Notes: a model not told the origin generated them from the letters alone. Counted from the first letter of the stretch, positions 4,097-20,635 are shown. The stretch is DNA of 64,000 nucleotides from Escherichia coli (GCF_003018255.1 NZ_CP027440.1), one strand, 5' to 3'. Translations and numbers: made by a program.

Positions 4097-5593
4097 ATGA
4101 CGCAATACTGGCTGGGGTTAGATTGTGGCGGTAGCTGGCTGAAAGCCGGGCTGTATGACCGCGAAGGCCGGGAGGCAGGCGTGCAGCGCCTGCCGCTGTG
4201 CGCATTAAGCCCGCAGCCAGGTTGGGCAGAGCGCGATATGGCAGAACTGTGGCAATGCTGCATGGCTGTCATTCGCGCCCTGCTTACTCATTCTGGTGTT
4301 AGCGGGGAACAAATTGTCGGTATCGGCATCTCCGCACAGGGAAAGGGCTTGTTTTTGCTGGATAAAAACGACAAGCCGCTCGGTAACGCCATTTTGTCCT
4401 CGGATCGCCGGGCGATGGAAATCGTTCGTCGCTGGCAGGAAGATGGCATCCCGGAAAAACTCTACCCGCTGACGCGACAAACCTTGTGGACCGGGCATCC
4501 GGTGTCGCTGTTACGCTGGCTGAAAGAGCACGAACCGGAACGCTACGCGCAAATTGGCTGCGTGATGATGACGCACGACTACCTGCGCTGGTGTTTAACC
4601 GGCGTCAAAGGTTGCGAAGAGAGCAATATTTCTGAGTCCAATCTCTACAACATGAGTCTTGGGGAATATGACCCGTGCCTCACCGACTGGCTGGGGATCG
4701 CTGAAATCAACCACGCCCTGCCACTTGTTGTCGGATCTGCCGAAATCTGCGGGGAGATCACCGCTCAGACAGCCGCACTGACCGGTCTGAAAGCGGGTAC
4801 GCCCGTTGTCGGCGGCCTGTTTGATGTGGTTTCCACCGCACTCTGCGCCGGGATCGAAGACGAATTTACCCTCAATGCGGTGATGGGCACCTGGGCGGTG
4901 ACCAGCGGCATAACCCGTGGTTTACGTGACGGTGAAGCGCATCCGTATGTCTATGGTCGCTACGTTAACGATGGTCAATTTATCGTTCATGAAGCAAGCC
5001 CCACCTCTTCCGGCAATCTCGAATGGTTTACCACACAGTGGGGAGAAATCTCGTTTGATGAGATCAACCAGGCCGTTGCCAGCTTGCCGAAGGCCGGGGG
5101 CGATCTCTTTTTCCTGCCGTTCCTGTACGGCAGCAACGCTGGACTCGAGATGACCAGCGGTTTCTACGGGATGCAGGCCATTCACACCCGCGTACACCTG
5201 TTGCAGGCCATTTATGAAGGCGTGGTGTTCAGCCATATGACCCATCTCAACCGGATGCGCGAACGTTTTACTGATGTGCACACCCTGCGCGTCACTGGCG
5301 GTCCGGCGCACTCCGATGTCTGGATGCAAATGCTGGCGGACGTCAGCGGTCTGCGTATCGAGCTGCCGCAGGTGGAAGAAACCGGCTGCTTTGGTGCGGC
5401 ACTTGCCGCCCGCGTCGGCACCGGAGTTTATCGCGATTTCAGCGAAGCCCAACGTGATTTACAGCACCCGGTACGCACCCTGCTGCCGGATATGACCGCC
5501 CATCAGCTTTACCAACAAAAATACCAACGTTATCAGCATCTCATTGCCGCACTTCAGGGCTTTCACGCCCGCATCAAGGAGCACACATTATGA
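4097..5593 (+). CDS. lyxK: L-xylulose/3-keto-L-gulonate kinase (FGGY carbohydrate kinase)
   Basis: 498 aa, FGGY-kinase-like N-terminus (LGLDCGGS…), position in the operon. Confidence 0.85.
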   Translation: MTQYWLGLDCGGSWLKAGLYDREGREAGVQRLPLCALSPQPGWAERDMAELWQCCMAVIRALLTHSGVSGEQIVGIGISAQGKGLFLLDKNDKPLGNAILSSDRRAMEIVRRWQEDGIPEKLYPLTRQTLWTGHPVSLLRWLKEHEPERYAQIGCVMMTHDYLRWCLTGVKGCEESNISESNLYNMSLGEYDPCLTDWLGIAEINHALPLVVGSAEICGEITAQTAALTGLKAGTPVVGGLFDVVSTALCAGIEDEFTLNAVMGTWAVTSGITRGLRDGEAHPYVYGRYVNDGQFIVHEASPTSSGNLEWFTTQWGEISFDEINQAVASLPKAGGDLFFLPFLYGSNAGLEMTSGFYGMQAIHTRVHLLQAIYEGVVFSHMTHLNRMRERFTDVHTLRVTGGPAHSDVWMQMLADVSGLRIELPQVEETGCFGAALAARVGTGVYRDFSEAQRDLQHPVRTLLPDMTAHQLYQQKYQRYQHLIAALQGFHARIKEHTL

Positions 5594-17761: not shown

Positions 17762-17868
17762 GATCGTCTCCTTGCGGTGTGAGGTATAACAAGGGTAGAC
17801 GTGACTGGCGAAATCTTCGCCAGTCGGTAACAGCTTTACGACGGCTATCACGAATTTACGGGCAAAAG

Positions 17869-19164
17869 CTACAGCGGGTAGTGTGCGACGTACACGGCTT
17901 GCTGGTTATTAATTCTTTTCTCTTGCGCGAATCCTTCTTTAACAATTGTCCGTAAATCAGCTCGAGCCGTATTATCAGAGACGCCCAAGCTCGCGCTAAT
18001 TTCAGCAACTGTGTACTCTTTCCCCGGATTGGCGAGCATCACATTCAGGAGCGTTACCTGGCGCGGATTCAGGCGTTTAAGCACACCAGAGCTAAACAGC
18101 ACACTATCGAGTTTTGCGCTTCGTTGTGTAATTTCATCGATATGCTGCTGCCAGTTTTGCAGAGCACGTTTAATGACACCCGCCTGATATTCAAGGAAAT
18201 AAGTCAGATCCATACCATCTGATTCAGTGTACTGGTAGCTGGCGGCATATTTGACCGGTGCAGCATGAAGCAAACGGCTGATGGAAATATATTTAAAGAC
18301 ATCGTAGCCCGATTTCAGCATATACCAGTAAAACAGCGCCCGACTGGTGCGCCCGTTGCCATCGCGAAACGGATGTTCATGGGCCAGCATAAAATGCAGA
18401 ATGCAGGCACGGACCAACGGATGAATATACCCTTCATGGCTGTTTAACCACTGGCAAACTTTTTCCAGCCGTTCCGGTAACAATGCCGCAGCGGGCGGTT
18501 GATGCACTATATTGCCATCATAGTCGGCGATCACAACATCATCTGTTTCACGAAATTCTCCCGGACGATATTTCGCGTCATTGATTCCACCCATACCAAT
18601 GGCATGTAACTGGCGAATAAGCGCAGGTGTCAGCGGTTCTGCGAGTAAGTGCGGAATTTCCGCCATCAGCCGGGCATTTCCCGCAATCATATGCTCGTCT
18701 TCAGTGCGTGGCGACCGCCCTGTTTCCAGCATTTTTCTCGCCACCAGCGTTGTAGTATTCGCACCTTCCAGTTGGGAACTGGTGATCGGCTCTTCCAGGC
18801 GTAACTGACTTAACTCGGCGCCCGCCCCGCGTAACCGTTCAGTCTGATCTTTCAGCGCCAGTGCAGTGGCATGTTTATCAACAAGCTCGCACGCTTCTGC
18901 AATCACCGGCGTAATGTTGAATCCGGCCTGTTCACCCGCTTCATTGCAATAATTAATTCGTTGGATCGCCGCGTTGCGCGCCAGACGGGTAAGCGTCCAC
19001 GCCACATCGACGTTTTCTCCTTTTTTGATGCGGTACTGCAGCTCATCAAAAGGCAGATAACGTCCTTTTTCATCGGTAACCCGGTTAAAGCGCAGGTGGG
19101 CCAGGAGTTCCTCACCCGATAAGTGTGATAAAGGAATAAGTCCGGGAGGTGATTTGATAGCCAT
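17869..19164 (-). CDS. Fic-domain protein (class II, with C-terminal winged-helix-like region)
   Basis: 431 aa; canonical Fic motif [14 protein letters not shown]; candidate inhibitory motif SSQLEG (S/TxxxEG/N) N-terminal to it; about 110 aa of C-terminal extension. Confidence 0.8.
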
Positions 19165-19169
19165 GTGCT

Positions 19170-19248
19170 TATCTCAAAAAAGCGCAATATTGAGATAGTG
19201 TATAGCAGGAAAGAGAAACTATCTCAAAAATCGCAAATTTTGAGATAG
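19170..19248. promoter_or_regulatory. Two tandem palindromes (arms CTATCTCAA/TTGAGATAG, 12-bp spacer, about 49 bp apart) immediately upstream of the Fic gene
   Basis: tatctcaaaaaagcgcaatattgagata at about 19170..19198 and ctatctcaaaaatcgcaaattttgagatag at about 19219..19248; the first begins 6 bp from the Fic start codon. Confidence 0.5.
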
Positions 19249-19293: not shown

Positions 19294-20445
19294 TTACATC
19301 GCTGCGCGATAAATCGCCATAATTTCTTCGTGAGTTGCCTGAATCGGGTTAGTAAACCCACACGCATCTTTCAGGGCATTGGTTGCCAGCACTGGAATAT
19401 CTTCTTCTTTCACGTTCAGGTCACGCAGGCCTGCCGGGATATTCACTTTCTTCGCCAGTTCACGGATGGCATTGATGCACGCTTCTGCGCCTTCCGCGTC
19501 ATTTTTGCCTGTCACGTTAACGCCCATGGCAGCAGCACAGTCACGCAGACGCGCAGCAGCGACTTTGCTGTTGAACACCTGAACGTGTGGCAGCAGAACG
19601 GCATTACATACACCATGTGGCAGGTTGTAGAAACCGCCCAGTTGGTGCGCCATCGCATGAACATAACCAAGAGATGCGTTGTTGAATGCCATGCCAGCGA
19701 GGAACTGGGCATAAGCCATTGCTTCACGCGCTTTAGCATTGCTGCCATCTTCAACGGCTAACGGCAGGTTTTCGGCAATCATGGTCACGGCTTTCAGTGC
19801 GCAAGCGTCAGTGATCGGCGTGGCGGCAATAGAAACATACGCTTCGATAGCGTGCGTTAAGGCATCCATACCCGTTGCGGCGGTCAGTGACTTCGGCATA
19901 CCGACCATCAGAGATGAGTCATTGACAGAAAGCAACGGAGTTACATGTTTATCAACAATCGCCATTTTGATATGACGCGCTTCGTCAGTGATGATGCAGA
20001 AACGGGTCATTTCAGAGGCCGTACCCGCCGTGGTATTGATGGCGATCATCGGCAGCTGCGGTTTTGCAGAGCGGTCAACGCCTTCGTAATCGCGAATATC
20101 GCCGCCATTGGCTGCCACCAGCGCAATACCTTTTGCGCAGTCGTGCGGAGAACCACCGCCTAAGGAGATCACGCTATCGCAATTATTTTCTTTAAGTAAT
20201 TTTAAACCTTCGGCGACGTTTTCCGTGGTGGGGTTAGGTTGGGTGCCATCATAAATAACGCTAAAAATATTGCGTTCTTCCAGTGCTTTTTGCACATCAC
20301 CCGCCATACCCAATTTCGTTAACATGTTGTCGGTGACAATTAAGGTACGGGTAAATCCATAATCTGCCATCATATTCATTGCATCATTCAATGAATCAGC
20401 ACCAATAACATTCACGGAAGGAATAAAAAAGGTTGAAGCTGCCAT
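19294..20445 (-). CDS. yiaY: Iron-containing (group III) alcohol dehydrogenase
   Basis: 383 aa, Fe-ADH family sequence; position between aldB and selB. Confidence 0.85.
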
Positions 20446-20635
20446 AACACACTCCTGAAAGTGTAAAAAAGGGCGGGCAGCTTACTGAGGATTTTCATTT
20501 GAAAATATGATCAACATTACCGTTTATTAAAATATTTTTAATAAAAAGCACGTTACATTCATTAAATAACGTGCCTTCTTAACATTAATAAGAAATTTTG
20601 TATTAATTCATATTTATTATGAATTAATCATTTCC

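Follow-up and report, generated by a model that had tools for sequence, protein, structure and literature searches.

An AT-rich palindrome between selB and yiaY of Escherichia coli as the intact form of a conserved DNA dyad

Sites for Fis, IHF and H-NS are located upstream of the FNR-activated nir promoter of E. coli. The AT-rich dyad that we describe here between selB and yiaY resembles such architectural sites of FNR promoters in that it is likewise AT-rich and lies about 140 bp upstream of a predicted FNR-dependent start, but it differs from them in that no Fis or conserved IHF consensus fits its arms and in that the yiaY promoter architecture is itself a prediction. With the dyad-symmetric operators of dimeric bacterial transcription factors it shares arms that are conserved around a centre that is not. 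The closest single example that we found among these operators is the HlyU site of Vibrio cholerae, TAATTCAGACTAAATTA, an AT-rich TAATT...AATTA palindrome positioned 173 bp upstream of the hlyA start (PMC4330345). Both elements are AT-rich inverted repeats with TAATT/AATTA arms placed far upstream, and the arm sequence ATTAATTCA of the selB-yiaY dyad occurs in the HlyU probe; however, TAATT and AATTA are separated by N7 in the HlyU site and by N13 in the selB-yiaY dyad, no HlyU-type regulator is linked to the selB-yiaY locus, and here a terminator stands before the promoter.

The boxes GTTNATT / GTTAAT have been described for Dan (YgiP/TtdR), a protein that is abundant only under anaerobiosis (PMC2887951), which is also the condition under which yiaY is induced. 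The dyad arms, ATTAATT, match the Dan boxes at five of the six specified positions, but the leading G of the boxes is absent from the arms in all taxa, the boxes are not described as a spaced dyad (PMC2887951), unlike the selB-yiaY element, and yiaY and selB are not named among the Dan targets in the main text of PMC2887951. As to the intrinsic terminators of Enterobacteriaceae, every one of their hallmarks is found in a second hairpin of the same spacer (20548-20574), whereas the palindrome, lying between the stop codon and this terminator, is devoid of a G+C-rich stem, a U-tract and compensatory evolution.

Position and singularity of the palindrome

The DNA analysed here, called the window throughout, is a 64-kb stretch of an E. 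coli genome, and all coordinates are counted from its first letter unless another sequence is named. The genes and the parts of the palindrome are as follows.

22477-23868, minus strand: selA
20636-22480, minus strand: selB
20636-20638, minus strand: selB stop codon, TAA
19294-20445, minus strand: yiaY, a full-length match to the L-threonine dehydrogenase equivalog
20443-20445, minus strand: yiaY start codon; residues 1-383 correspond to profile positions 1-383
20602-20628: perfect AT-rich inverted repeat with 11-bp arms, ATTAATTCATA / TATGAATTAAT, and a 5-nt centre, from a repeat finder
20620-20628, minus strand: dyad arm nearest selB, ATTAATTCA
20611-20619: 9-bp dyad centre, fixed in length and variable in sequence
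20602-20610, minus strand: dyad arm furthest from selB, TGAATTAAT
3,757,983-3,758,009 of K-12: the dyad in K-12 coordinates

The gap between selB and yiaY measures 190 bp and contains 73.7% A+T. Within it, the first-pass annotation had pointed to an inverted repeat at 20603-20627 with 10-bp arms, TTAATTCATA-TTTAT-TATGAATTAA, which is indeed present and to which the repeat finder adds one pair, giving perfect 11-bp arms at 20602-20612 and 20618-20628. As selA, selB and yiaY are all encoded by the minus strand, the palindrome begins 7-8 nt past the selB stop and its near edge lies 158 bp ahead of the yiaY ATG. The 9 bp given earlier for the distance to the selB stop is approximately right: counted from the 11-bp version it is 7 nt, and from the 10-bp version 8 nt. 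Reading along the minus strand, which is the transcribed one, the spacer contains first the AT-rich dyad, then the probable selAB intrinsic terminator and last the yiaY promoter region.

To what extent such a repeat is expected by chance was estimated by first-order Markov simulation of 190-bp gaps of the same composition, allowing loops of 3-9 nt. In 1.0% of the simulated gaps there was a perfect inverted repeat whose arms reached 10 bp or more, and in 0.39% one whose arms reached 11 bp or more; in the entire 64-kb window there are only three distinct inverted repeats with arms of at least 11 bp. The palindrome is therefore locally unusual, even though a few per genome are expected by chance from composition, and the decisive evidence that it is more than a chance product is the conservation of its arms across genera. 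It is the only match to itself in the window with three mismatches allowed. Repetitive extragenic elements (REP/BIME, ERIC, MITEs) occur in many copies per genome, while each of 1,336 E. coli genomes has the palindrome in a single place, and on this basis we rejected its assignment to that class. Rfam 15 gave no match at the gathering score; the best scores, 9.8-19.3 bits against thresholds of 48-100 bits, came from unrelated eukaryotic, plastid or Staphylococcus families.

Other inverted repeats were seen in the vicinity. Directly after the terminator U-tract, at 20523-20545 of the window, lies a third perfect AT-rich inverted repeat, TTTATTAAAA-ata-TTTTAATAAA, with 10-bp arms; it occurs in the window-type allele, while neither K-12 nor Citrobacter has a palindrome there. 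The spacer running from the yiaY stop to the fic start contains, at 19219-19248, a perfect inverted repeat with 11-bp arms and an 8-nt loop, CTATCTCAAAA. A GC-rich hairpin lies upstream of aldB at 17803-17825 (GACTGGCGAA...TTCGCCAGTC) and recurs as GGCTGGCGAG...CGCCAGCC between selB and aldB in genera lacking yiaY (loci L021, L027-L029, L039, L041 and L077), where no U-tract follows it; it constitutes a conserved feature of the 5' region of aldB.

The end of the selAB operon

For comparison, the region downstream of selB was collected from 80 species, and a full-length yiaY was found after selB in 23 loci, belonging to Escherichia, E. albertii, Citrobacter, two Enterobacter species, Intestinirhabdus, Pseudocitrobacter, Kluyvera and Pluralibacter. 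Twenty of these sequences were used for RNAalifold and for counting base pairs, and a 17-taxon alignment was used for the conservation of blocks.

It had been suggested that the palindrome could be a weak intrinsic terminator for selAB. Its RNA hairpin folds at -8.7 kcal/mol with a single G-C pair in 11, and on the transcribed strand it is followed by ACAAAAUUUC, which is not a U-tract; the transcript after the stem reads ACAAAAUUUCUU, without a U-tract within about 2 nt. A scan for the intrinsic-terminator consensus called none at the palindrome. Across the 20 taxa, 74% of the cells of the palindrome helix are paired, the two innermost pairs are broken in most taxa, and 57 cells are unpaired as against only 7 changed on both sides, so the pairing decays without compensation. 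RNAalifold, run on the same 20 taxa, did not predict the palindrome helix, and the only structure that it predicted was a second hairpin further downstream. Thus, none of the three marks of an intrinsic terminator, namely a G+C-rich stem, a U-tract and compensatory pairing, was found at the palindrome.

This second hairpin is made up of two parts.

20548-20574, minus strand: probable selAB terminator stem-loop, GCACGUUA ... UAACGUGC, extended with flanking pairs by RNAfold
20540-20547, minus strand: terminator U-tract, UUUUUAUU on the transcript, directly after the stem

The stem-loop is situated 27-55 nt downstream of the palindrome, and stem-loop and U-tract together (20540-20574) lie 62-96 nt past the selB stop. 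The hairpin folds at -16.4 kcal/mol (z = -6.7) and its stem has 4-5 G-C pairs. In the 20 taxa 96% of its cells are paired, and 7 of its 10 pairs are compensatory, that is, changed on both sides. When fold energies were computed for 25 sequences, the terminator region reached -16 to -29 kcal/mol in all of them, compared with 0 to -12 kcal/mol for the palindrome region. Kluyvera, Pseudocitrobacter and Enterobacter soli have a different stem sequence in the same place, and between E. coli alleles the changes in the terminator stem are compensated, GCACGTTA/TAACGTGC in one versus GCACATTGT/ACAATGTGC in the other. A G-C stem and a U-tract after the last gene are therefore both present here, along with covariation; the consensus scan missed this hairpin because its loop of 9-11 nt exceeds the limit of 8 set by the tool. 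We also searched published Term-seq and TSS supplementary tables by gene name and coordinates, and these contained no selB 3' end and no yiaY 5' end; their sole match, from a Rho-dependent set, was a 3' end located within yiaY. We conclude that the palindrome is not the selAB terminator, and that the operon most probably ends at the neighbouring hairpin with its U-tract, 20548-20574, which is probably the selAB terminator.

Conservation of the dyad across genera and within E. coli

The selB-yiaY spacer is about 190 bp long in all but one of the 23 loci, the exception being C. amalonaticus with an insertion of about 140 bp. Near selB, the cross-genus alignment of these spacers shows a dyad, ATTAATTCA-N9-TGAATTAAT on the transcribed strand, of which the palindrome of the window is the intact form. 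In E. coli E69, E. albertii and nine Citrobacter species the arms carry 0-1 mismatches in 18 positions and the dyad always starts 8-11 nt past the selB stop; Pseudocitrobacter has one mismatch. The core ATTAATT of the near arm (20628-20622) is at least 88% conserved in the 17 taxa, and the conservation of the far arm continues into ACAAAA, the resulting block AATTAATA occupying 20608-20601. In these 17 taxa only four blocks are at least 88% conserved over at least 6 nt, namely ATTAATT, AATTAATA, GTGCTTTTT, which comprises the 3' half of the terminator together with the U-tract, and GATCAT. The centre of the dyad, on the other hand, differs in almost every species, while no taxon has an indel between the arms. 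Mean pairwise identity reaches 0.875 in the arms, while the centre, which is just as AT-rich, stays at 0.505 and the spacer taken as a whole at 0.647; of the 167 positions on the spacer at which a 9+9 block with a 9-column gap can be placed, that of the arms ranks first. This pattern of sequence identity indicates that selection constrains the arms in Escherichia, Citrobacter and Pseudocitrobacter.

The presence of the dyad is connected with yiaY. Where selB has no yiaY behind it, the best match to the dyad has at least 7 mismatches in 18, and the spacer has an ordinary composition of 44-55% A+T and only a GC-rich hairpin, which belongs to aldB. Since both the dyad and the high A+T content are absent where yiaY is missing, the AT-rich spacer, including the dyad, travels with yiaY and not with selB. 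In Kluyvera, Pluralibacter and Enterobacter soli, which do have yiaY, the dyad is weak or absent. As far as conservation of the palindrome is concerned, then, it is the arms that are kept, in Escherichia, Citrobacter and Pseudocitrobacter, and neither the centre nor the RNA pairing. Symmetric conserved arms at a fixed spacing around a variable centre are what is found in a dyad operator, and these features, in combination with the uncompensated decay of the pairing, point to a symmetric protein on double-stranded DNA rather than to an RNA stem.

Several individual loci deserve description. The C. amalonaticus insertion (L014, ~4390-4530) is GC-rich and palindromic, lies between the dyad and the terminator and is flanked by the near-repeats AAGTATAACGAGTATA / AAGTATAGCGAGTATA, so that it looks like a small mobile or repetitive element. 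In Escherichia sp. MOD1-EC7003 (L009) and in Citrobacter sp. Cu233 (L015) yiaY is reduced by internal deletion to C-terminal fragment(s) and the spacer is kept, the dyad having 4 mismatches in the former and 1 in the latter. An IS1 abuts the selB stop codon in E. coli 2017.15.02CC (L006, 748-1500). This locus lacks the entire spacer together with yiaY and the genes up to and including part of yiaL, and its annotation marks the YhcH/YjgK/YiaL-family gene that remains as incomplete. In the Citrobacter loci L012, L013, L016, L019, L020 and L024, a 16-codon open reading frame, MKQLIQ.LNELIQN.Y, overlaps the selB stop (TAATG or ATGA) and spans the dyad; Citrobacter sp. wls619 has an interruption in this frame, and Escherichia has a different frame, of which only 4 codons are open, so we regard it as probably fortuitous.

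Within E. coli, a 56-bp segment around the palindrome was found in 1,336 of 5,426 complete genomes (about 25%), in each of them once and always beside selB. UTI89 is among them, and because this strain belongs to phylogroup B2, we refer to the intact allele as B2-type. The remaining approximately 75% carry K-12-type alleles, ATTAATTAA-N9-TAAATTAAT, in which one arm has lost its C and the other its G, both to bases that do not pair. The surroundings also differ: between the window and K-12 (L087) identity is 84.7% in the spacer, 94.4% in yiaY and 96.6% in selB, marking an unusually divergent region (19294-22480), and in 5,410 genomes the identity falls into bands, at least 99% in 1,166 and 80-90% in 3,542, indicating at least two deep classes of intergenic alleles. 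Being degraded in about 75% of E. coli genomes, and weak or absent in three lineages that possess yiaY (Kluyvera, Pluralibacter and Enterobacter soli), the element must be dispensable.

The predicted yiaY promoter and the possible role of the dyad

In Shigella flexneri, yiaY is induced about 9-fold under anaerobiosis (log2 fold change 3.18), and this induction depends on FNR, as expression changes by log2 -2.73 in an fnr mutant (PMC4229854, Table 1). In the window, two candidate promoter elements were found downstream of the terminator.

20507-20520, minus strand: FNR-like box, GTAAT-GTTG-ATCAT, holding the conserved GATCAT; a putative promoter element
20479-20484, minus strand: -10-like hexamer, TAAGCT (TATGCT in Citrobacter), conserved and at a gap-free spacing to GATCAT

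The centre of the FNR-like box lies 68.5 nt upstream of the yiaY ATG, about 7 of its 10 positions match in Escherichia alleles and 6 of 10 in Citrobacter, and its 3' half is the invariant GATCAT. The position of TA(A/T)GCT would place the yiaY start near 20472, and consequently the FNR-like box at -41.5 and the centre of the dyad (20615) near -143. As -41.5 is the class II position for FNR, the yiaY promoter may be assigned, on these predicted coordinates, to the class II FNR type. An alternative candidate promoter in K-12, TTGATA-17-TATTTT, overlaps the same block as the FNR-like box.

The palindrome had also been proposed to be an operator in the yiaY promoter. With regard to the kind of element this proposal is compatible with our results, given the conservation of the arms, their fixed spacing and their occurrence only together with yiaY; with regard to its place it probably is not, because the centre of the dyad precedes the yiaY ATG by about 170 bp and the predicted start by about 143 bp, which puts it beyond the selAB terminator and hence probably outside the promoter itself. 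A promoter within the dyad was considered as well: the TGAATTAAT arms resemble an extended -10 element but have no A at -11, and sigma-70-like sites were not called on either strand.

Proteins that could bind the dyad were looked for among known factors. An FNR or CRP box at the dyad was rejected on spacing and sequence, as its TTAAT and ATTAA words are 15 bp apart, compared with 4 bp between the half-sites of the FNR box TTGAT-N4-ATCAA, and there is no FNR-type site with at most two mismatches at a conserved position over the dyad. A literature search returned no reported link between YiaU/LpsR and yiaY. Compared by eye, none of the ArgR, IHF, ArcA, NikR, XerCD/dif and LysR-type boxes fits both the arms and their spacing; E. 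coli does have an IHF-like match on the plus strand, but Citrobacter does not conserve it. A Fic protein with a helix-turn-helix was rejected because Citrobacter, E. coli E69 and some metagenomic contigs of E. coli have an intact dyad but no fic. The gene concerned (17869-19164 of the window, minus strand, between yiaY and aldB) encodes a Fic-family protein of 431 aa with a weak C-terminal HTH, matches Pfam Fic at 5.6e-20 with no NCBIfam match, and is annotated 'Fic family protein' in UTI89; it is absent from K-12, all Citrobacter loci and E. coli E69, and looks like a strain-specific insertion of about 1.4 kb. Going by the likeness of its boxes to the arms, Dan may be taken as a lead only, and a literature search for the arm words returned only the HlyU analogy. 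In a metagenome scan for exact matches, E. coli- and Citrobacter-like contigs among the matches listed have the dyad only at selB-yiaY, and the other matches listed come from many unrelated, mostly AT-rich organisms. With no second copy in the window and only the selB-yiaY context among the metagenome matches listed, there is no evidence for a regulon. A dispersed repeat, cccgATTAATTCATAAAsTTTATGAATTAATcggg, shares the arm sequence and is unrelated; it is present on many environmental contigs of about 35% GC from one freshwater-sediment-type sample series (L090, L102, L105, L136, L140, L159, L161, L162 and L166).

Several explanations of the palindrome were then weighed against one another. 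It may have no function at all, being a chance palindrome in AT-rich DNA whose arm conservation reflects slow decay, lineage recombination or mutation bias, and such an origin would be in keeping with the 0.4-1% of AT-rich gaps that yield a repeat of this kind, with the two further AT-rich inverted repeats of the same gap that are not conserved, and with the degradation of the dyad in most E. coli genomes and its absence from several genera that keep yiaY. We nevertheless consider it unlikely, since the arms form the most conserved 9+9 block of the spacer, right beside an AT-rich centre that drops to about 50% identity, and are the same sequence in genera whose flanking spacer can otherwise be aligned only poorly, at a fixed spacing and free of indels. 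A generic site for nucleoid proteins, in which the AT-rich arms with their AATT and TpA steps would nucleate H-NS/StpA or Dan and thereby silence or insulate the 74%-AT region upstream of yiaY, accounts for the contrast in A+T between this spacer (73.7%) and the spacers lacking yiaY (44-55%), for the resemblance of ATTAATT to the Dan box (PMC2887951), for the anaerobic regulation of yiaY and for the lack, among the metagenome matches listed and in the window, of a second specific copy that would point to a dedicated regulon. Since nucleoid proteins tolerate sequence drift, they would not explain why conservation in the arms so far exceeds that in the centre and flanks, which are just as AT-rich, and a spacing held strictly at 9 bp favours a dimer of defined geometry. 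In addition, the arms lack the G of the Dan box and the main text of PMC2887951 names neither yiaY nor selB among the Dan targets, and we judge an explanation by generic nucleoid proteins to be rather improbable.

An element acting at the RNA level is still harder to reconcile with the data. An AU-rich stem-loop in the selB 3' UTR could act on selAB mRNA, for instance by offering a ribonuclease or RNA-binding protein a double-stranded site to recognise, or by forming the upstream hairpin in a 3'-end module of the Hfq or ProQ type. In favour of such a role, the palindrome precedes the terminator and so belongs to the transcribed 3' UTR; folding of the 161-nt 3' region is unusually stable (z = -5.3); predictions for Pseudocitrobacter and for most Citrobacter species include a 9-bp stem; and a few U-G/G-U cells occur at pairs that are conserved otherwise. 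Against these observations stand the uncompensated breaking of pairs and the missing RNAalifold helix, a stability that is low and erratic (0 to -12 kcal/mol), the result of the Rfam search, a presence that follows yiaY and not selB, and a literature search that found no evidence of a selB 3'-UTR RNA; an RNA element therefore seems to us a distinctly poor candidate. The weak terminator, finally, has in its favour a hairpin-forming sequence just past the selB stop, but with its one G-C pair, the absence of a U-tract, the lack of structural conservation and a canonical, covarying terminator directly downstream, it is so improbable that we set it aside.

The reading that we prefer, and to which we give somewhat less than an even chance, is that the palindrome is a DNA site for a protein, distal (about -143) to the predicted FNR-type yiaY promoter. 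According to this proposal, a two-fold symmetric protein, or two copies of a protein, would recognise the ATTAAT-containing arms on double-stranded DNA; the two ATTAAT hexamers are 21 bp apart, which corresponds to two helical turns, so that both would face the same side of the helix. The putative site, centred about 143 bp upstream of the predicted class II FNR-type promoter, might then serve as a distal operator or architectural site that modulates anaerobic yiaY expression. Among E. coli genomes about a quarter (B2-type) have the element intact, as does Citrobacter. A position near -143 with a terminator in between is, however, unusual for an operator, and no binder was found by sequence or co-occurrence among FNR, CRP, Dan, YiaU and Fic-HTH. 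Any strict requirement for distance or phase is not kept, in view of the insertion of about 140 bp that separates the dyad from the terminator and promoter in C. amalonaticus.

We also put forward, as a speculative and on balance unlikely proposal, that the dyad is the operator of a regulator, possibly linked to anaerobiosis, that would tune the FNR-dependent expression of yiaY, a gene for an L-threonine / alcohol dehydrogenase, from about -143, and that this operator is intact in B2-type E. coli and Citrobacter and inactivated by one change per arm in the approximately 75% of genomes of K-12 type. If true, this would represent a natural cis-regulatory polymorphism between extraintestinal-pathogenic and laboratory lineages.

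In summary, the annotation of the intergenic region is corrected in that selAB ends most probably at the covarying hairpin 20548-20574, and a testable model of the yiaY promoter is provided, consisting of an FNR-like box at -41.5, a TA(A/T)GCT -10 hexamer and a conserved dyad near -143. If the dyad binds a protein, the B2-type and K-12-type alleles would offer a small, clean case of regulatory divergence within a species; apart from this, what we describe is ordinary intergenic architecture and nothing fundamental is altered.
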